In this document: piece after piece, positions 595-17,377 of the stretch | How the letters are laid out: each line of letters opens with the position of its first letter | Position numbering within the stretch: position 1 is the first letter of the stretch | DNA from: Sedimentisphaera cyanobacteriorum | GTDB lineage: Bacteria > Planctomycetota > Phycisphaerae > Sedimentisphaerales > Sedimentisphaeraceae | Assembly (NCBI RefSeq): GCF_001997385.1 | Contig: NZ_CP019633.1 | Coordinates: 2,070,001 to 2,102,000, forward strand | Direction: 5' to 3' | DNA length: 32,000 bases | Notes under the pieces: generated by a model | Seen by the model: the letters and a program-made list of their open reading frames with translations, nothing else | Told to the model about the DNA's origin: nothing | Databases searched by the model: none | Position numbers and translations under genes: made by a program

Positions 595-726
595 ATGAAA
601 CCAAAATGTGAAAATTCTAATTGTAACTGTGATGGAAAATGCAAAGTCTGTCAATGCCGTGAAACCGTAGCAATTGCCGTGCAGTCTCAAGTCAAAGAGA
701 AAAAGGCCGAAAGGACTGCAAAATGA
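595..726 (+). CDS. 43-aa cysteine-rich micropeptide (MKPKCENSNCNCDGKCKVCQCRETVAIAVQSQVKEKKAERTAK), below the ORF-track length cutoff
   Basis: Hand translation gives ATG at 595 and TGA at 724-726. That stop overlaps the ATG (723-725) of the radical SAM gene as ATGA. Six Cys lie in residues 5-21. A weak GGAA sits about 7 nt upstream of the ATG. Confidence 0.5.
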   Translation: MKPKCENSNCNCDGKCKVCQCRETVAIAVQSQVKEKKAERTAK

Positions 727-2714
727 ATGCAAAAACTGAAACAATCAATTTTTCCAATAGTAATGGACAAAAGCAGTATCAAACGGAGAAACCCTGTGAA
801 TTTCCTTTTGACTCACGTTTTCGCAGCCACATGGATACTTACGGCTGGAGCCGGGTATCACCAACCGGCAATGAAAAAGAATACCGGCTGAATATCATTA
901 AAAACGGCAGCAGTGAAATGAACAGGCGAACAGCTTACATTCATATTCCGTTTTGCGGTACACTTTGTACGTTCTGTAATTTCATGAGAAAGCCCGGCAC
1001 TGCTGCGATGGCCGCTGATTATGCCCAACTGGTTATACAGGAATTACAATGGTATAAGGGTTCTGGTTACATTTCTCAAGGCGGATTTGAGGCACTGTAT
1101 CTGGGGGGCGGGACACCGTCACTATTACCTGCTGAAGCTATGTCGGAACTGCTGAATACTGCTCGCAAAACACTTGGACTTGACGAAACGGCAGAGATCA
1201 CCATTGAGTCAACGGTACATGACCTTACTCAGGAAAAACTTGATGCAATGGTCCAGTCTGGCGTAACACGCATCAGCCTTGGCGTGCAGACATTTAATTC
1301 TGATATGCGGCGGCAGCTGGGAAGGCTCTCTGATAAGGAAACGATTTACAGCACCATCGAAATGGCGAGAAAGGCCGGAATCAAAACCATTTCTTCTGAC
1401 ATTCTTTATCGCCTGCCGGGTCAAAATCTTCAGGAATTCCAGGCTGATCTTGAATGCGCGGTCGAGTTAAACCTGGATGGTGTATCTTTGTATCCTTTGA
1501 TTGCCATGGGCGGAACACCTTTAGAAAAACGGCTAAAAGAGGGCAAAATTCCTCCATTACCAGATATTTCTATCGAGCTGGAACAATGTAAAGCAACAAA
1601 GAAGTTCCTGATCGATGCTGGCTACCAGCAGGACACGTGCACTCATTTTGTCAAGCCAACAGATCGAAATCTCTATGCGAATATCCGTCTGGATGATGGA
1701 GACTGTCTGCCCATCGGCAGCAGTGCCGGCGGCTATCTTGGCCCGCTTGTTCTTATGAACGCCATGGATAAGCAGATGTATCAGATGCAAATCTCTGGAG
1801 GCAAGTCCGGATATATGGCTTCTGTTCTGCTGCCGTCGAAATCCAGAATGCTAAGGTCGGTTACCGGGCAGCTTCAGCGTGGTTTTCTAAATGTTGAAAC
1901 TGTTTGGCAGGATGGTACGTTGGAACCCAAGACTCTTTTGCAAGATAAGATTGATCAGTACCTTGAAAATGGATTGCTTGAAAAAGATGGACAGCAGTAC
2001 CGATTAACCGATGATGGCTGGTGCTGGTGTTATAACATTGCAGCCGATTTTGCGGATATGGGCAAAAATGAAAGTGCCGCAAGCAGTTCTGTAATGTCAT
2101 TTGCGCAAACAAGCGGCAAAAAGCCGCATCCTCATGCATTAAAATACGGCAGCAAAAAACAAGGTCACTCCATGCGGGGCTTTTCATTAAAAGACATTTC
2201 TGTTCTGGGTGTTATGACTGCGCTGGTGGTTGTTGTCCAATTTATAGCTGCGATGGTTTTACATATGACTGGGATTGCTCTGATCCCCGGCCTGATGCAG
2301 TTTGTAATGGCGTTTGCCTCCTGTATCATTTTGTTTGTCGCCATAAAAAAAGTCCCCAAAGCCGGGGCACTTAGCATTATGACAGCGGTATATTCTCTGG
2401 TAACGATGCTGTTGTCCGGCAGTATTCTGATGGGGTTTGGGCTGGTGATCGGCGGTGTTTTAGGCGACCTGACCGCCAAATGGCTTGGCGGGATTGGGAA
2501 AACGGTTCCGTTGATCATTGCTTTAGTTATCTATCGAACTTCTCAGACAACATTCAGCAAGCTGTATGCATTCATCACTGAGATGACACAGGTGCAATTT
2601 GTATGGTATCTGGTCGTGCTTTCAATCATCGCTTCTGCAATAGGTGCGATTGTCGGAGGATTAGCCGGTATAAAACTAACGGCAAAGATCTCAAAAGCGG
2701 GAGTGATGGCATGA
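723..2714 (+). CDS. HemN/ChuW/HemW-like radical SAM enzyme fused to a C-terminal ECF-transporter S-component-like polytopic membrane domain
   Basis: Carries the CxxxCxxC motif YIHIPFCGTLCTFCNF, the HemN-family blocks LYLGGGTPSLL and RISLGVQTFN. After a Ser/Lys/His-rich linker (about aa 445-490) there are about 170 aa of consecutive hydrophobic helices (VLGVMTALVVVVQFIAAMVL... to the end). An ECF T gene follows with an ATGA overlap. Confidence 0.8.
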   Translation: MNAKTETINFSNSNGQKQYQTEKPCEFPFDSRFRSHMDTYGWSRVSPTGNEKEYRLNIIKNGSSEMNRRTAYIHIPFCGTLCTFCNFMRKPGTAAMAADYAQLVIQELQWYKGSGYISQGGFEALYLGGGTPSLLPAEAMSELLNTARKTLGLDETAEITIESTVHDLTQEKLDAMVQSGVTRISLGVQTFNSDMRRQLGRLSDKETIYSTIEMARKAGIKTISSDILYRLPGQNLQEFQADLECAVELNLDGVSLYPLIAMGGTPLEKRLKEGKIPPLPDISIELEQCKATKKFLIDAGYQQDTCTHFVKPTDRNLYANIRLDDGDCLPIGSSAGGYLGPLVLMNAMDKQMYQMQISGGKSGYMASVLLPSKSRMLRSVTGQLQRGFLNVETVWQDGTLEPKTLLQDKIDQYLENGLLEKDGQQYRLTDDGWCWCYNIAADFADMGKNESAASSSVMSFAQTSGKKPHPHALKYGSKKQGHSMRGFSLKDISVLGVMTALVVVVQFIAAMVLHMTGIALIPGLMQFVMAFASCIILFVAIKKVPKAGALSIMTAVYSLVTMLLSGSILMGFGLVIGGVLGDLTAKWLGGIGKTVPLIIALVIYRTSQTTFSKLYAFITEMTQVQFVWYLVVLSIIASAIGAIVGGLAGIKLTAKISKAGVMA

Positions 2715-3469
2715 TACGCTCATTCATCCAGCGACTGGGACAGCGAAATCCGGATTGTATTTTCGAACAGCTTGATCCAAGATGTAAACTGATCATCCTT
2801 TTTGCTGTTACCATAATGATCATTATAGGCAACAGCGTTTTCTCTGCAGGCCTGTTCATAGCTGCCGGTTTTCTCGCCTTTTATTCGAAGCTGATGAAAT
2901 TGTTTCTCTTTACAACTGTATTGGCGGCCATTTTTTGGGTTATTTTTATGGTGATATTCCAATATGCCCTGGACAAGCCGATGGAAGACCCCAAAGCCAT
3001 GTTTGTTGGAATGGTTTTCAGAGGAACTGCACTGGCAACCACCGGATTATGGTTTGCTGTGACCACTAAATTGCGTGATATGACTATCGCACTTGAAGCC
3101 TGGAGAATCCCCAATATTATTATCCTGCCGCTGACAATTGCGGTTCGGTTTATACCGACACTGCTCAATGAATCCCTGGTCATTCACGATTCCATGCGGC
3201 TTCGACGCTTGGCTCATCGAAAGCGTGACCTGATTACCCAGCCTCATTTGATCGGCCAGAGCTATATATCACTGGTGACAATCCGAAGCCTGAAAATGGC
3301 AGATGAACTGGCCGCCGTTGCTGAGACACGGGGGCTTGCTCGCCCGAACCAAAGACAGTTTCTAAAGCCTGCAAAATTCAGGAAAAACGACTATTGCGCC
3401 CTGAGCATCCTGCTGGCTCTGGCGGCTGTTTTAACCGCAGCGTCATTATATGTAAGGGCCGCTGCATAA
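2711..3469 (+). CDS. ecfT: ECF transporter transmembrane (T) component, EcfT/CbiQ family
   Basis: ATG 2711 overlaps the upstream TGA as ATGA. The protein is polytopic and has a CbiQ-like region (IILPLTIAVRFIPTLLNESLVIHDSMRLR). It lies between an S-like domain and, beyond the island, a tandem ABC ATPase. Confidence 0.75.
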   Translation: MIRSFIQRLGQRNPDCIFEQLDPRCKLIILFAVTIMIIIGNSVFSAGLFIAAGFLAFYSKLMKLFLFTTVLAAIFWVIFMVIFQYALDKPMEDPKAMFVGMVFRGTALATTGLWFAVTTKLRDMTIALEAWRIPNIIILPLTIAVRFIPTLLNESLVIHDSMRLRRLAHRKRDLITQPHLIGQSYISLVTIRSLKMADELAAVAETRGLARPNQRQFLKPAKFRKNDYCALSILLALAAVLTAASLYVRAAA

Positions 3470-3931: not shown

Positions 3932-4462
3932 ATGCCTCTGAGGAAATGTAAGGATTGTGGCAACTCCGTTAGTAGCACTGCGAAAATCTGCCCTCACTGC
4001 GGCAGGCCGATGCAAAGCAGGGATATTATTTCATCTCTCGCTAGATTTTTTGTCATCGGCTTCGTCATAATCCCCATCATCATTTCAATCTTCATGTCGG
4101 TATACCACTCCGGCACAAGCACTGACTCCAACGGCAACCACGCAACTTCATCTGCTAGGGTTCCAAAGACTCCAAAGATCGACAAATCTGAGAAGATGCA
4201 GGCCGATCGCCTTAATCTCATTGAGAGACTTCAAAGGGAGGGCATCTTCGGCGACATCATCCCAAGATCTTCCGGCGCGACAATAGTTGTCAAACCAGCG
4301 TTTTACACGCTCGATTTCAAAGATAAGCAGTCGTTTGTTTCTGTTGTGTATGCGTACTACTTCGATGGTTTGACCCCGTATACGCCAATCCTTTTACGAG
4401 ACTCGCGCACCAACAATAACATCGGTTCCTTTACAGTAGAACTCGGTTTAGATATCAAATGA
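3932..4462 (+). CDS. Zinc-ribbon protein with one TM helix and a C-terminal domain of about 85 aa of unknown function
   Basis: ATG 3932 is preceded by GGGGGAAAT. It has the motif CKDCGNSVSSTAKICPHCG and the TM segment FFVIGFVIIPIIISIFMSVY. A low-complexity S/T/K linker follows, then LNLIERLQREGIF...VELGLDIK. Confidence 0.6.
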   Translation: MPLRKCKDCGNSVSSTAKICPHCGRPMQSRDIISSLARFFVIGFVIIPIIISIFMSVYHSGTSTDSNGNHATSSARVPKTPKIDKSEKMQADRLNLIERLQREGIFGDIIPRSSGATIVVKPAFYTLDFKDKQSFVSVVYAYYFDGLTPYTPILLRDSRTNNNIGSFTVELGLDIK

Positions 4463-6015: not shown

Positions 6016-6055
6016 ACACAAATTAAAGGTGTCCGGTGCTTTTTTCCTACCTAAT

Positions 6056-6280
6056 GCAGGTCAATTTTTATGCCGCCTTTACTGTAAACCGCTATTGCGG
6101 CGTGTTCTCTACGGCAAAGTCCAAAAACCGATAGCCCTCTTTTAATACACGCTGGCCGGCTACGAGCTGGATGGGATAATTAAAAAGCGGCCCATCTGTT
6201 ACCACCGTGTTCAACTGGCCGGAAGAATTGAAAATAAGAAAAGGTGTCTGGGAAGCAGTCCCGATTTATCGGGCTCCGGA
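6056..6280. repeat. Repeat A, copy 1 (about 225 bp)
   Basis: Aligns by eye along its whole length with 11246-11470, with scattered substitutions and a 1-nt indel. It contains the structured segment GCCGC-cttta-CGGT-aa-ACCG-ctatt-GCGGC and the hairpin CCCGAtttaTCGGG. Confidence 0.85.
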
Positions 6281-6387
6281 CGCAATCCGGGGCGTTTGGG
6301 AACGAATCAAAATGCCGTCAAAAAAACCCTTGCAGCGGGATAATATCCGGCTATAATACGACTTGTTTTGCCCGGCGGCGCAGCCGG
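6275..6387 (+). repeat. Promoter/junction module, copy 2
   Basis: Near-identical to 3719-3828 (see that feature). It is directly fused to the end of Repeat A copy 1. Confidence 0.85.
6330..6357 (+). promoter_or_regulatory. Sigma70-type promoter TTGCAG-16 nt-TATAAT (paralogue of 3771-3798)
   Basis: The hexamers were read directly from the sequence. The spacer is CGGGAtaatATCCGG. It lies upstream of the RM-like trio, which starts at about 6414. Confidence 0.5.
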
Positions 6388-6413
6388 ACAGCCGATATGG
6401 GAAATGGCAGATT

Positions 6414-7076
6414 ATGCCGATGGAAGAACAAGTCAAATCAAAGCAGAGGGTAGCCGATCATGGCGAGGTTTTGACCGGTAAGCGGGAGGTCAATGCCATG
6501 CTGGATCTGGTCAAGCAGGAGACCGAGCGAATCGATTCCCGCTTTCTGGAACCGGCCTGCGGGGCGGGCAACTTTCTGGCGGAGATTCTCGAACGGAAGC
6601 TGCGCGTCGTGGAGAAGCGCTATGCCAAGAGCCAACTGGAATACGAGCGCAACGCGGTGCTCGCCGTCTCCAGTATCTACGGCATCGATATTCTTGAAGA
6701 TAACATCGAGCAGTGCCGACAGCGGCTGTTCGGCATCTTCGACCGGAACTACCTGCGGCTCTTCTCAAGCAAGACGAACGACCAATGCCGCGAAACGGTC
6801 CGCTTCATCCTCGAACGCAACATCGTTCACGGCGACGCGCTGACCCTCAAGACGGTCGGCGAGCAACCGGGCTACATCGTCTTTTCCGAATGGTCGCCGG
6901 TCAACGGCAGTTTCCTCAAACGCCGCGACTTCACCTTTCACGGTCTGCTGGAACATGAGCATATACGGGGACTGCCGCTGTTCTCCGACCTGGGCGAGGA
7001 TGTGTTCATCCCCACGCCGGAGAAGGAATACCCGCTGGCGCATTTCCTGGAGGTGGCCGATGCTGACAAGCAATAA
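6414..7076 (+). CDS. Methyltransferase-fold protein with SAM-binding motif I but no recognisable NPPY/DPPY motif IV (degenerate paralogue of the next gene)
   Basis: [17 protein letters not shown]...[12 protein letters not shown] parallels [17 protein letters not shown]...[12 protein letters not shown] in the downstream methyltransferase. IYGIDI and IVHGDALT are present. Where xxGNPPY is expected the sequence reads [11 protein letters not shown]. The start could be 6414 or 6420. Confidence 0.65.
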
Positions 7077-8628
7077 CTACAACCCCGACGTGCTGACCTG
7101 CATCGCCAACCTGTCGAGCGACGAGGTCTTCACGCCGCCGGGGCTGGTCAACCGGATGCTCGACCTGCTGCCGCCGGAACTCTGGAGCGACCCGCAGGCG
7201 ACCTTTCTCGATCCGGGCTGCAAGTCGGGCGTGTTCCTGCGCGAGATCGCCAAGCGGCTCGACGCCGGGCTGGAGCGGCGCATCCCCAACCGGCAGGAGC
7301 GGATGAACCACATCTTCAAGCACCAGCTCTACGGCCTGGCCATCACGGAACTGACGGCGCTGCTCTCGCGCCGCTCGGTCTATTGCTCCAAGACGGCCAA
7401 CGGCAAGTATTCCGTCTGCGAGACCTTCGACGCCCCCGAGGGCAACATCCGCTTCGGGCGCGTGGAGCATACCTGGGTGAACGGCCGCTGCGTCTTCTGC
7501 GGGGCGAACGAGGAAAACTATAAGCGCGGAGAAGAACTCGAAACCCACGCCTACGAGTTCATCCACACCGAAAAACCGGAGGAGATATTCAATATGAAAT
7601 TCGACGTCATCATCGGCAACCCGCCCTACCAGTTGAGCGACGGGGGCGCTGCCGCCAGCGCCATGCCTCTATACCATCGGTTCATCCAGCAAGCGAAGAA
7701 ACTTAACCCTCGTTATTTGACGATGATCGTTCCAAGCCGCTGGTTTTCAGGCGGGAAGGGGCTGGACGAATTTAGGGCAGAGATGCTTCAAGATAAGCGA
7801 ATGCAACACCTTGTCGACTACCCAGTATCAGCGGAATGCTTCCCCGGAGTTTCTATCAAAGGGGGAGTGTGTTACTTCCTCTGGGTAAGGGACTATACAG
7901 GTCCTTGTTCGGTAACTACAATACGCGGAGGGGTGAGCACATGTTCTATCCGACCATTGCTCGAATCGGGCATTTCTGATTTTATTCGATACAACGAGGC
8001 TATTCCGATTCTAAACAAGGTGCGCAGACATTCAGAGGCTACCTTCGACAAAGAAGTTAGCGCAAGAAAGCCTTTTGGACTACCTACTGATTTCCGACAG
8101 TTCAAGAAGCACCGATTCGAAGCGGCAGTCAAGATATACGCCAACAAGCAATTCGGCTACATTGAGCGAGTAAATATCCCCGAGCGGACTGAGTGGATCA
8201 ACAGATGGAAGATCTATCTGACCCGTGCATATGGTGCTGGGGAAGATTTCCCGCACCAAATTCTTAATAAGCCGTTCTTGGGCGAACCTGGTAGTTGTTG
8301 CACTGAGACATACTTGGTGATTGGGCCATATGCTTCGAAGAAAACTGCACAGGCTGTATTGTCGTACATTAGAACTCGCTTCTTTCGCTTTCTTGTTCTC
8401 CTGAAGAAGAATACACAAGACTCGCCTCGTGGAGTATTCACGTTGGTTCCAATACAAGACTTCTCAAGGCATTGGACCGACGAAAAGCTCTACAAGAAGT
8501 ACGGCCTGACCGCAGACGAAATCGCCTTCATTGAATCGATGGTCCGCCCGATGGAGGCGAACGGGGAGGACCTGTCTGCGTGCGACGCACAGGCAGATGC
8601 GTCAGACGGGGAGGCGGACGATGAGTGA
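7060..8628 (+). CDS. Eco57I-like (gamma-class) N6-adenine DNA methyltransferase
   Basis: ATG 7060 follows GGAGGTGG and overlaps the upstream gene by 17 nt. Motif I is [12 protein letters not shown] and motif IV is VIIGNPPYQ. There is a Cys cluster (C..C...CVFC) between them. The C-terminal block [24 protein letters not shown] is typical of this family as I recall it. Confidence 0.85.
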
Positions 8629-11167
8629 CGGCTTTTTCCCGCCGCGCCCGAAATCGCGGCCCACGATCTACGCCTACGAGGACACCAACCCGCAATACGC
8701 CGGGCTGCTCAAGGTGGGCTATACGACTGTGGACGCGCAGAGCCGCGTGGCGCAGCAGTATCCGACGCTGCGGCCCGGCAAGCCGCCCTACCGAATCGTG
8801 CTCGAAGAACCGGCCATGCGCAACGACGGGACCACCTTCACCGATCATCACGTCCACGGCATGTTGCGGATCAACGGCGTGAAGAACGAGGGCGGCGAGT
8901 GGTTCCGCTGCACGGTGGAGCAGGTCAAGGCGGCGATCATCGCCGTGCGCACCGGCCAACTGAACGAGGAGAACCGGTCGCTGGATTTCGCCCTGCGCCC
9001 CGAGCAGGAAGCGGCGGTCGAGAAGACGGCGGCCTACTTCGCCGCCTGGCGCAGGGACAAGGCCAACGGCGACAAGCCGCCGCATTTCCTGTGGAACGCC
9101 AAGATGCGCTTCGGCAAGACCTTCGCCGCCTATCAACTGGCGAAGCGGATGAACTGGCGCAAGGTGCTGGTGCTGACCTTCAAGCCGGCGGTGCAGAGCG
9201 CGTGGGAAGAGGACCTGAAGCAGCACGTCGCTTTCGCGGGTTGGCAGTTCATCAAGCCCGGCGGCCTGACCTATGAGGAGGCAGACAAGGGGAAGCCCTT
9301 CGTCTGCTTCGGCTCGTTTCAGGACTACCTGGGCAAGAACAAGAGCACGGGCGGCATCAAGACCAAGAACGAATGGGTTCACGCGACGAACTGGGATTGC
9401 GTGATCTTCGACGAATACCACTACGGCGCCTGGCGCGAGAACGCCAAGGAACTGTTCGAGGCAGAGGACAAGAAGGAGATGGCCTTCGCCGAGGGCGAGG
9501 GGCTGGAAGACTTTGACGAAGAGATCATGCCGATCACGACGGAGCACTACCTGTATCTGTCGGGCACGCCGTTCCGCGCCATCGCCTCGGGCGAGTTCAT
9601 CGAGGAGCAAATCTTCAACTGGACCTATTCGGACGAGCAGCGCGCCAAGCGGGACTGGGAGGGCGAGAACAACCCCTACGCCTGCCTGCCGCGCATGGTG
9701 CTCATGACCTATCAGCTGCCCGACGCGATCCGGGAAATCGCCATGCAGGGCGAGTTCGACGAGTTCGACCTGAACGTGTTCTTTTCCGCCGAGGGGGTGG
9801 GCGAACACGCGAAGTTCAAGTATGAGGACGAAGTGCAGAAGTGGCTCGACCTGATCCGCGGCGCGTTTCAGGCGGCGACGGTGGACAACCTGAAGCTGGG
9901 GACGAAGAAGCCGCCGATGCCGTATTCCGATGCGCGGCTGCTGAATCTCCTATCGCATACCTTTTGGTTCCTGCCGAGCGTGGCGGCGTGTCATGCCATG
10001 CGCAACCTGCTGGCGAAGAAGCAGAATCGCTTCTATCAGGACTATAAGATCCTCGTGGCGGCGGGGAGCGCCGCCGGAATCGGCGTCGCCGCGCTGCCGC
10101 CGGTGCTGGACGCCATGGAAGACCCGCTGGAATCGAAGACCATCACCTTGTCATGCGGGAAGTTGACGACCGGCGTGACGGTGCGGCCCTGGACGGGCAT
10201 CTTCATGCTGCGCAACGCTTCCACGCCGGAGACCTACTTTCAGGCGGCCTTTCGGGTGCAATCGCCCTGGACGGTGGCGAACCCCGACGGCGACGCGCCG
10301 AACCGCGAGCAGATCATCAAGGAGGAGTGTTACGTCTTCGACTTTGCGCCGGACCGTGCCTTGCGGCAGATCGCCGATTACAGTTGCCGCTTGAATGTGG
10401 ACGAGGCCAACCCCGAGAAGAAGGTCGAGGAGTTCATCAGCTTCCTCCCGGTGCTGGCCTATGACGGCAGTTCGATGAAGCAGATCGACGCGGCGGGGAT
10501 TCTCGACATGGCGATGAGCGGGACGACGGCGACGCTGCTGGCGCGGCGCTGGGAAAGCGCGCTGCTGGTGAATGTGGACAACGACACGCTGAAGCGGTTG
10601 ATGGCGGACGAAGCGGCGATGAAGGCGCTGATGAGCATCGAGGGATTCCGCAACCTCAATCAGGACATCGAGACGATCATCAACAAGTCGGAAGCCGTGA
10701 AGAAGGCGCGTAAGGAAAAGAACGACGAGGACATGACGAAGGAAGAGAAGAAGGAACTGACCGAGGAAGAGAAGGAATTCAAGAGCAAGCGCAAGCAGAT
10801 ACAGGAGAAGCTCATCAAGTTCGCCACGCGCGTTCCGATCTTCATGTATCTGACCGACTATCGGGAGCGCTGCCTGAAGGACGTGATCACCCAACTGGAG
10901 CCGGGCTTGTTCAAGAAGGTGACGGGCCTGAGTGTGAAGGATTTCGAGTTGCTGGTGAGCCTCGGCGTCTTCAACAGCGCCCTGATGAACGACGCCGTCT
11001 ACAAGTTCAAGCGTTACGAAGACGCCAGTCTGAGTTATACCGGCATCAACCGGCACGAGGGAGAAGACATCGGCCTCTACGATACAGTCCTCACTCCCAA
11101 GGATGCACTGAAGGTTTTCGAGAACGTACAGGCAGGTGCCGGATATGAATTTCAAAGAATGGGCTAA
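8621..11167 (+). CDS. T5orf172/GIY-YIG-like N-terminal domain fused to an SF2 (ResIII/SNF2-like) helicase with a Lys/Glu-rich coiled-coil region
   Basis: ATG 8621 overlaps the methyltransferase stop (ATGAGTGA). The N-terminal motifs are TIYAYED...LLKVGYTT...R...GGEWFRC. Helicase motifs are [19 protein letters not shown] and [12 protein letters not shown]. The late block is [13 protein letters not shown]. Confidence 0.85.
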
Positions 11168-11245
11168 CAAGGCGCTGCACCGGACGACGCTGCGCGCCGC
11201 TGATGCTGGGCGTTGGATAGAAAGGGAACATGGATAACCTTCAAG

Positions 11246-11470
11246 GCAGGTCAATTTCTATGCCGCCTTTACGGTAAACCGCTATTGCGGCGCGTTCTTG
11301 ACGGCAAAGTCCAAAAACCAATAGCCATCTTTTAATACACGTTTGCCCGCTGCGAGTTGGATGGGATAATTAAAAAGCGGCCCCCCGTTACCACCGTGTT
11401 CAACTGGCCGGAAGAATTGAAAATAAGAAAAGGTGTCTGGGAAGCAGTCCCGATTTATCGGGCTCCCGGA
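11246..11470. repeat. Repeat A, copy 2
   Basis: See 6056-6280. Here the - strand reading frame is intact (...FFRPVEHGGNGGPLFNYPIQLAAGKRVLKDGYWFLDFAVKNAPQ*). Copy 1 carries a frameshift but conservative substitutions, which suggests a gene 3'-end relic. Confidence 0.85.
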
Positions 11471-11533: not shown

Positions 11534-13039
11534 ATGCTGAAAATACAAGACTTAACATTTACATATACCCGGCAGGAGAAACCTGCTTTAAGCAATATCA
11601 ATCTGGATATTTCACCGGGCAAGCTGGTGCTTTTGACCGGGCCTTCCGGCAGCGGAAAATCTACGCTTGTGCATTGCATCAACGGCCTGGCTCCGCAGCA
11701 CTACGGAGGGAAGCTTGATGGAGAAATATGGATTGCCGGACGAGAAACCGCCGGAAAAACACTTTGGCAAATCAGTGAGTTGACAGGCACCGTATTTCAA
11801 AACCCCAATACCCAGTTTTTCCAGCTTACGGTCGAAGATGAAATCGCCTTTGGCCTTGAGCATTCAGGTCTTGACCGGCAGGAAATAAAAAAACGAATAG
11901 ATAAAGCCATAGAAGATATTGAGATCGAGTCTCTTAGAAATCGAGATATTTTCACCCTGTCCTCCGGCGAAAAACAAAAGGTGGCCTTGGCATCTATCAT
12001 TGCGATGGATCAGCCACTGCTTCTTCTGGATGAGCCGACGGCAAATCTCGATATCCCCTCAATTCATGAATTGAAAAAACTGCTGGCCAAATTAAAGAAT
12101 CAAGGCAGGACAATTATCGTTTCCGAACATCGACTGTGGTATTTAAGAGGCCTTGCCGATCAGGTGATCGTAATTAAAGACGGACAACTGATTTATGACG
12201 GAAAACCGGAAATACTGAATTCATCTCAATTCCGCAATGAAATTGGTTTACGCATATGGGCTAAGCCTCCGAAAATTACTGATTCCGAACATAATAATCT
12301 CAGACAGCGGACCGTACTGGATGTAAGCCGTCTTTCAGGGGGAGCAGGAAATAAAAAAGACATTCTCAACAACGTGAACTTTTCATTCAACGCAGGCGAA
12401 TGCATTGCCATTATGGGGCATAATGGAGTTGGTAAGACAATGTTTTCTCGCTTACTGACCGGCTTGCAAAAAGAGAGCCATGGAATCATTAAAATCAACG
12501 GCACTGCTTTAAAGCACAAAAGCCGAATCGGACAGATCGGATGTGTTACCCAGCAGGCTGAACAGCAGTTATTCTCTGATACGGTTCTTGGTGAATTACT
12601 TCTTAATCCAAAAGACAATGCGACGGAGGCCGATAAAGCAAAAGATATTTTAAGGCAATATGGTCTGATTGCCTTGAAAGACCGTCACCCGCAAACCCTC
12701 TCCGGCGGCGAAAAACAGCGTTTGGCAATTGCCGCCTCAATTGCAATGAATAATGAAATAATAATCCTCGACGAACCCACCAGCGGCATGGATATGAAGA
12801 GGATGAAAATGCTCGCTCAGGAAGTTAAGAATCTGTGCAGTCAGGGCATACTTGTCATTATCATTACACATGATATCGAATTGGTCTCGCTATGCTGCGA
12901 CAAGATAGCCTGGATGGAAAATGGAACCGTTGCCAAAACGTTAGAACGCGATCAATATAATGAATTATTTATTAAACTATTGAAATTTGACAGAACAGAA
13001 AGGCATAATGATGAAATGCATGGTTGTTTACTCAAGTAA
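11534..13039 (+). CDS. ecfA: ECF-type ABC transporter ATPase, two fused nucleotide-binding domains (EcfA1-EcfA2-like)
   Basis: Domain 1 has GPSGSGKST / LSSGEKQKV / LLLLDEPT. Domain 2 has GHNGVGKT / LSGGEKQRL / IIILDEPTSG. Confidence 0.85.
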   Translation: MLKIQDLTFTYTRQEKPALSNINLDISPGKLVLLTGPSGSGKSTLVHCINGLAPQHYGGKLDGEIWIAGRETAGKTLWQISELTGTVFQNPNTQFFQLTVEDEIAFGLEHSGLDRQEIKKRIDKAIEDIEIESLRNRDIFTLSSGEKQKVALASIIAMDQPLLLLDEPTANLDIPSIHELKKLLAKLKNQGRTIIVSEHRLWYLRGLADQVIVIKDGQLIYDGKPEILNSSQFRNEIGLRIWAKPPKITDSEHNNLRQRTVLDVSRLSGGAGNKKDILNNVNFSFNAGECIAIMGHNGVGKTMFSRLLTGLQKESHGIIKINGTALKHKSRIGQIGCVTQQAEQQLFSDTVLGELLLNPKDNATEADKAKDILRQYGLIALKDRHPQTLSGGEKQRLAIAASIAMNNEIIILDEPTSGMDMKRMKMLAQEVKNLCSQGILVIIITHDIELVSLCCDKIAWMENGTVAKTLERDQYNELFIKLLKFDRTERHNDEMHGCLLK

Positions 13040-13956: not shown

Positions 13957-14591
13957 GTTAACTACCCGCGTTCAGAAAAAACAATAAAGTGACAAAAAAT
14001 TATTTTTGAAGCATAATTGGCATTTTCTGTCCGTTTTTTATAGGACACCACAAGCCATTAAGATTTGCAGACACTACAACTGTACGGGTTCAGTGTGATT
14101 TGGACAAATCCGTTTCACAGTTAAGACACTTTTTATGCCTTTGGCGGGGCTGTCTTATCAGGTTTTTTTAAGGCATGGCAATGCTCTCAATTGCCCAGTT
14201 TGTAAAATGGGATGGCAGGTGTATGACTGCCACCCCAACGAAAATTCGTCGCCTTGAACTGGCTATCCCTAGCAGATTGCAACCAAGGCCTCATGCCACC
14301 TATATAATTTGCTCCTTGATGATGGTGTCGTCCTCAGATTTTGATTTTGGCGGCACCAAATTACAGTTTTTTCACGAAAATGAGGGGGACGGAGAGGTAT
14401 AGTTATAACTTAAGCTTTAACAGGAGGTTAGGTAACATATGTATAAACGGCGGAGCAAAATTGTCCCACCTGGCGGGCGGTTGAAAGTTGTACCCCTGTA
14501 ACCGAAATACCTGTAATAATAGACTGCAAGCAGAGATTCAAAGGACATTTGCAGTAGGTTATTATGGGAGAAAACAGGAGTGTACACAGAT

Positions 14592-16091
14592 ATGGATCAA
14601 TGGATCGAGTTAAGGCGTCAAATTCGTAATGGAGAGGTTTCCCTCCGTCAGTTGGAGCGGGAGACAGGTATTCACCGGCAGACCCTGCGTAAAATCCGGG
14701 ACAACAGTGAGCCGCCGGGCTACCGGCGTACCAAGCCGGCTGGAAAGACCAAGATTGGTCCGTATCTGGGTCGCATCAAGGAGATCATTGACGCTGACAA
14801 GCAGATGCCTAAAAAGCAGCGTCACACAGCCAAGAAGATTTTAGAGACGCTGGAGTCTGAAGGATTTACCGGCAGTTACACGATCGTCAAAGATGCCGTC
14901 CGCCAGATTAAAAAGACTTCCCGGGAAGTGTTCATGCCACTGAGCCAGCGACCGGGCGAGGCGCAGGTGGATTTCGGCCATGCCCTGACCAGCTTCGACG
15001 GCACCCTGAAAAAAATCGTATTCTTTGTCATGACCATGGTTCATTCGGATGCGATGTTCGTAATGGCGTTTCCCCGTGAATGTACCGAAGCTTTTCTGGA
15101 GGCCCATGTACGGGCGTTTAAGTTCTTCGGCTGTGTTCCCAGGCGGATCATTTATGATAATACCCGTGTAGCTATTACAAAGATACTGAAACATCATAAA
15201 CGCAAATATACCAGTGAGTTTAAGCGACTCATCAGTCATTACCTGTTCGAGCCTCACTTCTGTAACGTTCGAAGACCCAACGAGAAGGGTATTGTCGAAG
15301 GCAGTGTCAAGTATTCCAGGCTCAACTTCATGGTCCCCGTGCCGCAGGTTACCGATTACGATGACCTCAATCGGCTCTTGTATAACTGCTGCCAATCCGA
15401 CCTGAAGCGTATCCTCCGCGGCAAACGTTCTCTCAGTAAAGAACAGTTGCTGGCCGAAGACCGTGTCGCAGCCATCGCGTTGCCGGATGACACGTTTGAC
15501 TACCGCAAATCGGCATCGACATTTGCCAGCAGTGAATCACTTGTCCGTTATGACACCAACGATTATTCAGTCCCGGTAAGTTCAGCTCATCATCAGACGA
15601 CGATCAAGGCGTCAGTCAGCTTTATCGAGGTCTATCAACAGGACCGGCTCATCGCCAGGCACCGTCGCTGCTGGGACCGAGAACGGCAGATATTCGATCC
15701 GATGCACTATTTAGAGCTTTTGGAACGCAAGCCGGGTTCCCTGGATCATGCTCGTCCTCTGGAGGATTGGTCGCTGCCGAGATGTTTTAACACGTATCGC
15801 CGATGTCTTGAGGCGAATCGTGAAAACGGCACCAGGGAATATATCCAGATATTGCTCTTGCTGAACAAATATTCAATCCGACAAATATCGAAAGCCATCT
15901 GCAAGGCCCTCAATCATCGGATCTACTGTTATTGTGCGGTGCAGCAGTTCCTGCTGACGGCTGAAGATTATGCCTTTACGACCTTCAGCCTTGCCGGGCG
16001 GGACCATCTTCGTCACATTGTGGTTCGTCAGACCTCAGTTGCCGATTATCGTTCACTGACACAGGGAGGCTGTCATGTCAAAAGAGCGTAA
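14592..16091 (+). CDS. istA: IS21-family transposase IstA
   Basis: N-terminal HTH (LRQLERETGIHRQTLRKI) followed by a DDE/rve core. ATG 14592 lies 11 nt after AGGAG; the ORF-track start at 14580 is a GTG inside the RBS. The gene overlaps istB in the manner typical of IS21. Confidence 0.85.
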   Translation: MDQWIELRRQIRNGEVSLRQLERETGIHRQTLRKIRDNSEPPGYRRTKPAGKTKIGPYLGRIKEIIDADKQMPKKQRHTAKKILETLESEGFTGSYTIVKDAVRQIKKTSREVFMPLSQRPGEAQVDFGHALTSFDGTLKKIVFFVMTMVHSDAMFVMAFPRECTEAFLEAHVRAFKFFGCVPRRIIYDNTRVAITKILKHHKRKYTSEFKRLISHYLFEPHFCNVRRPNEKGIVEGSVKYSRLNFMVPVPQVTDYDDLNRLLYNCCQSDLKRILRGKRSLSKEQLLAEDRVAAIALPDDTFDYRKSASTFASSESLVRYDTNDYSVPVSSAHHQTTIKASVSFIEVYQQDRLIARHRRCWDRERQIFDPMHYLELLERKPGSLDHARPLEDWSLPRCFNTYRRCLEANRENGTREYIQILLLLNKYSIRQISKAICKALNHRIYCYCAVQQFLLTAEDYAFTTFSLAGRDHLRHIVVRQTSVADYRSLTQGGCHVKRA

Positions 16092-16860
16092 ATCGACCGT
16101 GCTGCTGCAACATCATCTCAAGCAGTTGAAACTTCCGACCATGCTTAAAGAATATCCGCTGCTGGCCAAATCCTGCAGCCGGGAAAAATGTGATTACCCG
16201 ACTTACCTGCTGCGGCTGTGCGAAAAAGAGGTTGCCGACCGGCAGCGGCGTGCGATGGACCGGCGAATCAAGGCAGCGAAGTTCCCGTTGCTCAAAACCA
16301 TTGACAGCTTTGACTTTGCCTCACAGAAGTCCGTCAACGAACCGCTCGTCCGGGAGTTATTACGGTGCGAGTTCATTGATCAATATGAAAATGTATTACT
16401 GATCGGCAACAGCGGAACGGGCAAGACCCATCTGGCCACTGCACTGGGGTTCGCTGCCTGTTGTCAGGGCTGCAAAGTCCGATTCTTCGGATGCACGGCA
16501 TTGGTGACACAGTTACTGGAAGCTCGGGAAGATCGGCAGTTGCAGCGAATGCTGACACAGCTCCAAAAACAGGACCTGCTGATCCTGGATGAACTGGGCT
16601 ATGTGCCATTCAGCAAAGCCGGTTCTGAGTTGCTCTTTGAGGTCGTCAGCCGGGCTTACGAACGGCAGAGCCTGATCGTGACGACCAACCTTCCGTTCGA
16701 GAACTGGACTGAAGTGTGCGGCTCCGAGAGGCTCACCGGGGCGATGTTGGATCGGCTCACGCACCGGGTCCATATCATCGAGGCCAACGGTAGTAGTTAT
16801 CGGCTTGATCAGAGCCGTAAACGCCTGGCAAAACAGCAGAAAAGAGCTGCCGAGAATTGA
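16075..16860 (+). CDS. istB: IS21-family helper ATPase IstB
   Basis: Walker A GNSGTGKTHLA and Walker B LLILDELGY. The size and position immediately after istA fit IstB. Confidence 0.9.
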   Translation: MSKERKSTVLLQHHLKQLKLPTMLKEYPLLAKSCSREKCDYPTYLLRLCEKEVADRQRRAMDRRIKAAKFPLLKTIDSFDFASQKSVNEPLVRELLRCEFIDQYENVLLIGNSGTGKTHLATALGFAACCQGCKVRFFGCTALVTQLLEAREDRQLQRMLTQLQKQDLLILDELGYVPFSKAGSELLFEVVSRAYERQSLIVTTNLPFENWTEVCGSERLTGAMLDRLTHRVHIIEANGSSYRLDQSRKRLAKQQKRAAEN

Positions 16861-17077: not shown

Positions 17078-17119
17078 TCGACTTTGAGCTCTTTGGAAAA
17101 TTTATCATGGATGGTAAAG

Positions 17120-17290
17120 TGTTTTGAGATAAAATACTTACAGGGAACGCGGTGAAAATCCGCGACGGTCGCGCCGCTGTGATCGTCCGACCCGGCATCA
17201 GCCGGGAACCCTGACAGCTTTATACCACTGTTCAAGTCGAATGGGAAGGTGTTGTCAGGCAGGATGAGAGTCAGAATACCTGTTACGATG
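17120..17290 (+). promoter_or_regulatory. Cobalamin (B12) riboswitch
   Basis: Conserved core elements were read in order: CAGGGAAcgcGGTGAAAATCCgcgaCGGTCGCGCCGCTGTGA, then ACCACTG...GGGAAGG, then the B12-box-like GAGTCAGAATACCTG. The boundaries are approximate. Confidence 0.8.
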
Positions 17291-17377
17291 AATTTAGTAA
17301 AGTTCTCGCGTAAAGAACAGCATTAAGCCGGATTATTGTAAATTAGTACATATAATATGGACAAAAGAAGGTTAAAA

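Follow-up and report, generated by a model that had tools for sequence, protein, structure and literature searches.

We analysed a 32,000-nucleotide (nt) stretch of the Sedimentisphaera cyanobacteriorum (Planctomycetota) genome, hereafter the window, and identified three adjacent genes, g1, g2 and g3 (hereafter the trio), which we consider reasonably likely, judging by homology and gene architecture, to encode a three-component, ATP-dependent restriction-modification module of Type ISP/III-like kind, in which the nuclease is of the GIY-YIG type and the methyltransferase consists of two proteins. In the mechanism we propose, g2 would recognize an asymmetric DNA site through an exchangeable C-terminal recognition domain and methylate adenine with its NPPY catalytic half. 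g1 would be an obligatory non-catalytic partner of g2 that keeps a canonical half-fold for binding S-adenosylmethionine (AdoMet), and may either supply or gate the cofactor for g2, whose own cofactor motifs have drifted, or couple g2 to g3. g3 would be the restriction subunit, with a superfamily 2 (SF2) ATPase that translocates from unmethylated sites and a T5orf172/GIY-YIG domain that cuts DNA, an action parallel to that of Type ISP and Type III enzymes with another nuclease fold. Subunit assembly, methylation, cleavage and the biochemical role of g1 we infer from homology and architecture. An earlier note on this DNA had singled out the trio as three translationally overlapping genes, and both the open reading frames (ORFs) and their overlaps (17 nt between g1 and g2, 8 nt between g2 and g3) are present, the same overlaps being seen again in homologous loci. 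g1 is 100% identical to locus tag L21SP3_01683.

The trio is a conserved module, and g1 is a conserved subunit of it, not a gene fragment. g1 and g3 each returned at least 8000 database matches; the best 120 are 80–95% identical and come from Thermodesulfobacteriota, Nitrospirota, Acidobacteriota, Chlamydiota, Hydrogenedentota and others. Among representatives clustered at 50% identity we counted 3436 relatives of g1, 458 of them at E <1e-30 and nearly all of these 210–290 amino acids (aa) long. A scan with a g1 profile, using one genome per species, identified at least 539 species-level genomes, spread over many phyla, that carry a g1 relative; this figure is a lower bound on the number of carriers. 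The order g1-g2-g3 and the same overlaps recur in unrelated metagenome contigs, and the small gene upstream of g2 in metagenome, plasmid and phage loci is a g1 homologue, with identity as low as 26%. We counted gene order in 47 loci with at least 6.5 kb of sequence downstream of g1. The trio was complete in 39, and in 3 more when split alignments were allowed, giving 42 of the 47 with g1, g2 and g3 in that order; this speaks to a question raised in the earlier note, whether the short paralogue always precedes the methyltransferase and helicase genes. The remaining loci appear decayed (L036, L048 and L101) or are without g2 or g3.

Codon-level comparison of five trios gave synonymous divergence (dS) above 1, that is, saturated, for most pairs, and ratios of nonsynonymous to synonymous divergence (dN/dS) of 0.06–0.14 for g1 and 0.03–0.09 for g3. 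High protein identity across phyla combined with saturated dS indicates strong purifying selection, and thus that g1 is a functional gene. Very recent spread was rejected as the cause of this identity since dS is saturated, the exception being the closest relative of the window locus (L103), at 86–91% nucleotide identity. The same data bear on the idea that g1 is a non-functional 5' duplication remnant of a methyltransferase gene. Apart from other methyltransferases, it has homology to nothing but the N-terminal part of g2, and it ends early, both of which suit a remnant. However, there are thousands of g1 homologues of equal length, dN/dS is near 0.1 with saturated dS, g1 occurs in at least 539 species and almost invariably has g2 and g3 downstream, and its fold is predicted confidently by AlphaFold2 (AF2). 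We give the remnant idea practically no credence: g1 as a pseudogene or duplication remnant is refuted by its conservation and dN/dS, and the numbers of homologues and carriers likewise dispose of the earlier proviso that it might be an unconserved duplication fragment.

Current annotation libraries hold little on this family. PADLOC, which has no dedicated model, returned nothing more specific than profiles for methyltransferases of Type II and Type IIG, along with a weak match to PDC-S57; NCBIfam gave generic matches and no model specific to the trio genes; and the literature searched yielded neither a description of the three-gene architecture nor a named system. The family is widespread but uncharacterised, without a dedicated family or system name in these libraries.

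g1 resembles the cofactor-binding half of an adenine methyltransferase. Its Pfam match is to the N-terminal part only of MmeI_Mtase (E 1.6e-7), and it is paralogous to the N-terminus of g2 (37% identity over 79 aa, E 7e-8; hhalign probability 97%). It carries motif X (GEVLT), motif I, motif II (YGID) and motif III (HGDAL), reads SEWSP in the NPPY position, and has no motifs V–VIII and no recognition domain. In 41 homologues, 40–91% identical to the window g1, motifs X (GEV[FYL]T), II (YG[IV][DE]) and III (G[DN]AL) are conserved and motif I (ExACGxGNFL) is invariant. At the NPPY spacing after GDAL these homologues read [S]EW[S][P/F], with E159 mostly conserved and W160 nearly invariant, and g1 ends 58 residues past this motif. 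The AF2 model of g1 (predicted local distance difference test score, pLDDT, 89.7) comprises strands 1–3 of a Rossmann-like fold, a fourth strand, a hairpin and a flexible tail. Its best Foldseek matches are the adenine methyltransferases CamA, BsaXI, MmeI and LlaGI, with partial coverage. Measured against the gamma class of N6-adenine methyltransferases, g1 thus has the AdoMet-binding motifs X, I, II and III and lacks both the NPPY of motif IV and the fold's C-terminal half. We conclude that g1 is a conserved, predicted AdoMet-binding protein that is probably non-catalytic. Much of this had been read from the window before: that g1 repeats the N-terminal architecture of g2, that FSEWSP stands in place of NPPY with a stop soon after, and that the product is probably a catalytically dead AdoMet-binding protein all agree with our data, the last by homology and context, and retention of a functional motif IV is rejected by the [S]EW[S][P/F] pattern.

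g2 matches the Pfam family Eco57I (E 7e-38) and shows the opposite pattern of strengths. Its GNPPY motif IV is invariant and its recognition domain variable, as in gamma-class, Eco57I-type methyltransferases, yet it lacks the canonical GxG loop of motif I and the acidic residue of motif II. Motif I reads FLDPxCKSGVFL, with Lys replacing the first Gly of GxG; the motif II acid is Ala, where an alignment places Asp in the BrxX/PglX structures 8c45 and 9ewz and in g1; and the alignments contain no GDAL-type motif III in g2, the position being taken by an inserted Cys/His cluster that looks like a zinc ribbon. The same two BrxX/PglX structures were the closest solved structures to the N-terminal part of g2 in a profile search (E 1e-5); g2 as a single sequence had no match among solved structures. 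Of the earlier statement that motifs I and IV of g2 are canonical, the half concerning motif IV stands and the half concerning motif I (KSG) does not. Nor do the data support calling g1 the degenerate member of the pair: where the cofactor would bind, it is g1 that is canonical and g2 that deviates.

The variability of the module is concentrated in the C-terminal domain of g2. Residues 1–280, NPPY and Cys/His cluster included, are conserved, residues ~281–460 are hypervariable, and the C-terminal region is 15–47% identical between homologues versus 70–93% for the rest. Between L103 and the window, homology begins at 6418 and nucleotide identity is 86% over 6418–7802 and 91% over 8473–11215, with no nucleotide similarity between 7802 and 8473; the corresponding amino-acid identities are 91% for g1, 94% for g3 and 59% for g2. 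The recognition domain of g2 has been swapped wholesale between conserved flanks in this closest relative. Such exchange accounts for a dip in guanine-plus-cytosine (GC) content inside g2 (46–52% at 7500–8500). With variability confined to this domain, specificity appears to reside in g2 and not in g1. The suggestion that g1 might be a specificity subunit was accordingly dropped, as g1 is too conserved for such a role (56–91% identity across phyla).

g3 joins a putative nuclease domain to an SF2 ATPase, as had been noted, with Pfam matches to T5orf172 (E 7e-10), MUG113 (E 1.6e-6) and ResIII. T5orf172 belongs to the GIY-YIG clan. Across an alignment of 44 sequences (57–94% identity) the T5orf172 domain conserves Y17, K31-x-G33-x-T35, R42, D69, D75 and E93-W94, a residue pattern that places the N-terminus of g3 in the T5orf172 branch of the GIY-YIG superfamily and makes it a predicted nuclease. 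The SF2 helicase/translocase motifs I (GKT), II (DEYH, of the DExH form), III (SGT), V (TTG) and VI (QAAFRVQ) are all there, and all invariant. Nuclease activity of a T5orf172 protein has been demonstrated for Odn of phage ICP1 (PMC8263062).

Natural fusions connect the three genes further. In three proteins (P0298, P0320 and P0348, the last located at locus L104) a g1-like N-half runs straight into a g2-like NPPY half, the N-terminal part of g2 being absent, and the junction differs in each. The gene for P0320 (locus L015, 4592–6043) immediately precedes a g3 homologue and overlaps it by the customary 8 nt, giving a two-gene form of the module. On the other side of the trio, the PADLOC profile REase_MTase_IIG (1359 residues) is covered by g3 over 153–801 and by g2 over 976–1359; one profile spanning g3 and then g2 indicates that single-chain relatives exist. 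A Lactiplantibacillus plantarum plasmid (NZ_CP058734; L018, 1–5191) encodes such a relative, in which T5orf172, helicase and the start of a methyltransferase lie in one chain, 34% identical to g3 over residues 14–649. Its methyltransferase is of the KSG type. The end of g3 (11080–11164, residues ~818–848) aligns with motif X of this methyltransferase, marking where the methyltransferase joins on in the fused form; the g3 C-terminus looks like what is left of a junction to a methyltransferase that was once attached. Ahead of the fusion lies a 295-aa ‘restriction endonuclease’, remotely homologous to g1 (hhalign probability 94%, E 9e-8). The L018 reading frame is broken at 4187, and the locus is cut off by IS30. 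Alongside it there are 32 Enterococcus and 9 Lactococcus plasmid matches.

Motifs X–III are canonical in g1, and g2 is deviant there while holding NPPY and the recognition domain, making the motif pattern of the two proteins complementary. One reading of this, possible if somewhat doubtful, is that the methyltransferase is naturally split, with g1 providing the sole competent AdoMet pocket and g2 the NPPY loop and recognition domain. Were this true, modification, and possibly licensing of g3, would depend on g1-g2 assembly and on cellular AdoMet; the module could sense phage enzymes that deplete AdoMet, and self-protection would be wired to restriction in a new way.

Alternatively, g2 may be complete and autonomous, with g1 as an accessory protein, either a sensor of AdoMet or S-adenosylhomocysteine or an adaptor that licenses g3; g1 could then switch the module from modification to restriction, or trigger it on AdoMet depletion by phage. 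AdoMet serves Type I and Type III enzymes as an allosteric cofactor. Consistent with this alternative, g1 is a self-contained domain in its high-confidence AF2 model, its cofactor motifs are conserved with NPPY replaced by a conserved E-W motif, and motif X, a loop resembling motif I, and NPPY are all still present in g2. However, an accessory g1 leaves the motif I and II deviations and the missing GDAL of g2 unexplained; the fusions put a g1-like N-half in place of the g2 N-half, suggesting that g1 can be the cofactor half of the catalytic domain; and g1 is found at virtually every intact locus, as one would expect of a core subunit more than of an optional regulator. We find this alternative rather unlikely.

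The genomic settings of the trio and the genes embedded in it suggest a defence function. One homologous locus adjoins GmrSD and McrBC genes. Extra genes lie between g2 and g3 in 20 of the 39 complete trios (Bro-N, DUF1016/YhcG-like and RhuM-like genes and insertion sequences) and between g1 and g2 in 6 of the 39 (PDDEXK_3/GxxExxY-like genes and a PIN toxin pair), some of these identities having been assigned from sequence signatures read in translations and not from Pfam runs. Gaps between trio genes occur at L025, L026, L029, L032, L034, L047, L051, L070, L079, L083, L094, L096 and L099. Embedded genes of the same kinds have been reported inside Type I loci (PMC9881135).

The trio travels on mobile elements as well as residing in chromosomes. 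The order g1-g2-g3 is found, again with the 17-nt and 8-nt overlaps, on plasmids of Rhizobium (among them pRphaN671a of Rhizobium phaseoli, with proteins WP_064832673, WP_064832672 and WP_064832671), Variovorax, Mycolicibacterium and Legionella. A human-gut phage genome, NatCom_35866 (PV036449.1, locus L022), carries the trio in the same arrangement, and at loci L012/L013 it sits in an integrase-bearing element beside Rad52 and HNH genes. On the Corynebacterium crudilactis plasmid pCRULAC2 (L016) a lone g3 homologue (58% identity), with no annotated g1 or g2, adjoins Tn3/IS1133 and aminoglycoside-resistance genes.

By its composition, the trio is foreign to the S. cyanobacteriorum genome, a putatively horizontally acquired GC-rich island, as the earlier note had held. 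Apart from the dip in g2 its GC content is 57–65% in 500-nt windows, and GC at third codon positions is 0.76 in g1, 0.81 in the N-terminal part of g2, 0.54 in the C-terminal part of g2 (7855–8628) and 0.87 in g3. Backbone GC averages 44–45% (range 36–55%), higher than the 35–40% first estimated. A direct repeat of ~225 nt, present in just two copies within the window, 91–93% identical, brackets the island. The repeat had no Rfam match, no third copy in the window and no exact match in the genome or metagenome collections scanned; the idea of a riboswitch or multicopy element found no support in these searches. Flanking repeats of this kind were not found around the trios at homologous loci L001 and L005, and searches covering the genome and metagenome collections and these two loci did not find an empty insertion site.

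Several observations weigh against an active restriction-modification module of the kind we propose. T5orf172 was first described as a DNA-binding domain, and in 26 of the 44 g3 sequences Gln takes the place of the second GIY-YIG tyrosine. The AF2 model of g3 is weak (pLDDT 58 overall, 72–88 in the N-terminal domain), and Foldseek matched it only to generic members of SF2, namely Snf2-family proteins, XPB and SauUSI, which is an ATP-dependent restriction enzyme; given the low confidence of the model, these matches indicate only SF2 membership. A single-sequence search with g3 returned no solved structure, and a profile search gave noise alone. On the modification side, g2 may, for all its unusual motifs, be a methyltransferase that needs no partner; the first Gly of motif I is also missing from some active enzymes, M.TaqI among them. 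The remote g1 homologue of L018 has a degenerate motif I, so cofactor binding may not be a universal role of g1. Carriage of the trio on a phage genome (L022) makes roles beyond host defence possible. Finally, the nearest studied analogue of the trio, the DnmA-YeeB-YeeC cluster of Bacillus subtilis, did not restrict transformation or phage (PMC9973331).

This last result also favours a further alternative, in which the trio is primarily a selfish or addictive mobile cassette, or a relic, with an orphan epigenetic methyltransferase and a g3 that is no active restriction nuclease here, as proposed for DnmA. Other points in its favour are the broad, patchy distribution across phyla with no linked mobility genes, the foreign GC content and bracketing repeats in S. 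cyanobacteriorum, the decayed loci L036, L048 and L101, and the orphan g3 beside transposons on the Corynebacterium plasmid. Against it, the three ORFs are intact with invariant catalytic and ATPase motifs, purifying selection on g3 is as strong as on g1, and turnover of the recognition domain is typical of genes under diversifying pressure from invaders. Moreover, deleting the DnmA and YeeB homologues of Vibrio crassostreae is reported to have raised phage sensitivity (PMC9973331). We therefore judge a selfish cassette or relic improbable, and prefer the ATP-dependent restriction-modification module.

The genes flanking the trio in the window are housekeeping, not defence, genes. Besides components of an energy-coupling factor (ECF) transporter, the neighbours include a GDSL hydrolase, an RNase T-like exonuclease and a flavodoxin. 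The ECF-transporter genes appear to lie ~8 kb apart, with three unrelated genes and the trio between them, and the operon may have been split by insertions. Further downstream are an insertion sequence (IS) and a riboswitch. Coordinates of all these features are collected in the table.

Table. Features of the trio locus and its surroundings, in window coordinates
Feature	Position	Strand	Remarks
g1	6414–7076	+	220 aa; alternative start at 6420 gives 218 aa, the form used by most homologues
g2	7060–8628	+	522 aa; Eco57I-family N6-adenine methyltransferase
g3	8621–11167	+	848 aa; T5orf172(GIY-YIG) fused to an SF2 ATPase; C-terminal region long and helical
Leader 5' of g1	6278–6413	+	unique 136 nt; no counterpart in closest relative L103
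g2 Cys/His cluster (C109, C120, H137, C144, C147)	7384–7500	+	conserved; inserted between motif II and motif IV
g2 motif IV NPPY (N187–Y190)	7618–7629	+	invariant in 21 homologues
g2 hypervariable target-recognition segment	7803–8472	+	coincides with the GC dip
g3 T5orf172/MUG113 (GIY-YIG-clan) domain	8660–8941	+	residues 14–107
g3 SF2 ATPase/translocase core	8987–10345	+	~residues 123–575
Direct repeat, left copy	6053–6277	.	~225 nt, imperfect; GC host-like, 48%
Direct repeat, right copy	11243–11466	.	directly upstream of the ECF-type ABC (ATP-binding cassette) ATPase gene
Radical-SAM/Trep_Strep fusion and CbiQ (ECF-transporter components)	723–3469		upstream of the trio
Double ATPase (ECF-type ABC ATPase)	11534–13039		downstream of the trio
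IS21-family element (IstA with Mu-transposase C-terminal domain, and IstB)	14580–16860		GC 49–53%, above most of the backbone
Cobalamin riboswitch	17098–17301	+	Rfam RF00174, 71.8 bits; sole Rfam match in the window at the gathering threshold

The family is abundant: its protein clusters number in the thousands, and the at least 539 species that carry it span most bacterial phyla. For defence genes, g1 and g3 show unusually high conservation. If active, the family would add a GIY-YIG-armed, ATP-dependent class to the repertoire of restriction-modification systems. Its modular recognition domain, exchangeable between conserved flanks, would help to predict or engineer specificity, and its adenine methyltransferase would consist of two proteins, with cofactor binding and catalysis maybe on different chains.

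The combination of methyltransferase, helicase and GIY-YIG nuclease has been known as an idea since 2009, when YeeA, YeeB and YeeC were proposed to form a Type I-like ATP-dependent restriction system (PMC2731913); for the conserved half-methyltransferase subunit g1 we found no description in the literature searched. Like the trio, the DnmA(YeeA)-YeeB-YeeC cluster combines in one operon an N6-adenine methyltransferase bearing its own recognition domain, an SF2 helicase and a T5orf172/GIY-YIG protein. DnmA is MmeI-like and ~880 aa long, however, whereas g2 is a ~500-aa Eco57I-type enzyme with a KSG motif I, and the cluster has separate helicase and T5orf172 polypeptides and no g1, where the trio has T5orf172 fused to the helicase and a 218-aa g1. 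By architecture, the basis on which YeeB and YeeC were compared, the trio lies outside DnmA-YeeB-YeeC. PglX/BrxX of BREX (bacteriophage exclusion) systems belongs to the same Eco57I-type family as g2, but is ~1200 aa long, has canonical GSG and GLDID motifs, and works with BREX partners that are not present at the trio locus.

In Type III systems (EcoP15I-like Mod/Res), as in the trio, the methyltransferase is a protein apart from the helicase-nuclease and brings its own recognition domain; ResIII matches g3, and the Type III Mod dimer, in which only one protomer is catalytic, offers a possible analogy for g1 plus g2. In contrast to the gamma/Eco57I-type methyltransferase and N-terminal T5orf172 domain of the trio, Type III enzymes have a beta-class Mod homodimer and a Res whose PD-(D/E)xK nuclease is C-terminal; the genes and the domains are also ordered differently, and searches at the sequence level gave no match to a solved Type III protein. 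Type ISP enzymes (LlaGI, LlaBIII) likewise unite a nuclease, an SF2 ATPase, an Eco57I-like adenine methyltransferase and a recognition domain as a unit, a likeness extended by the single-chain relative of g3 plus g2 on Lactobacillales plasmids and by LlaGI as a weak structural match to g1. They do so in one polypeptide with an Mrr/PD-(D/E)xK nuclease, whereas the trio has three genes (M-half, M and R, in that order), a GIY-YIG-type nuclease and the additional g1; LlaGI and LlaBIII chains in the Protein Data Bank were detected neither by the g3 sequence nor by a g3 profile. The view taken in the earlier note, of an ATP-dependent Type III/ISP-like module with an N-terminal GIY-YIG domain, is thus borne out by homology and context but not as regards the defining features of either type: the trio differs in nuclease fold, polypeptide organisation and methyltransferase class, and so stands beside Type ISP and Type III, outside the definitions of both.

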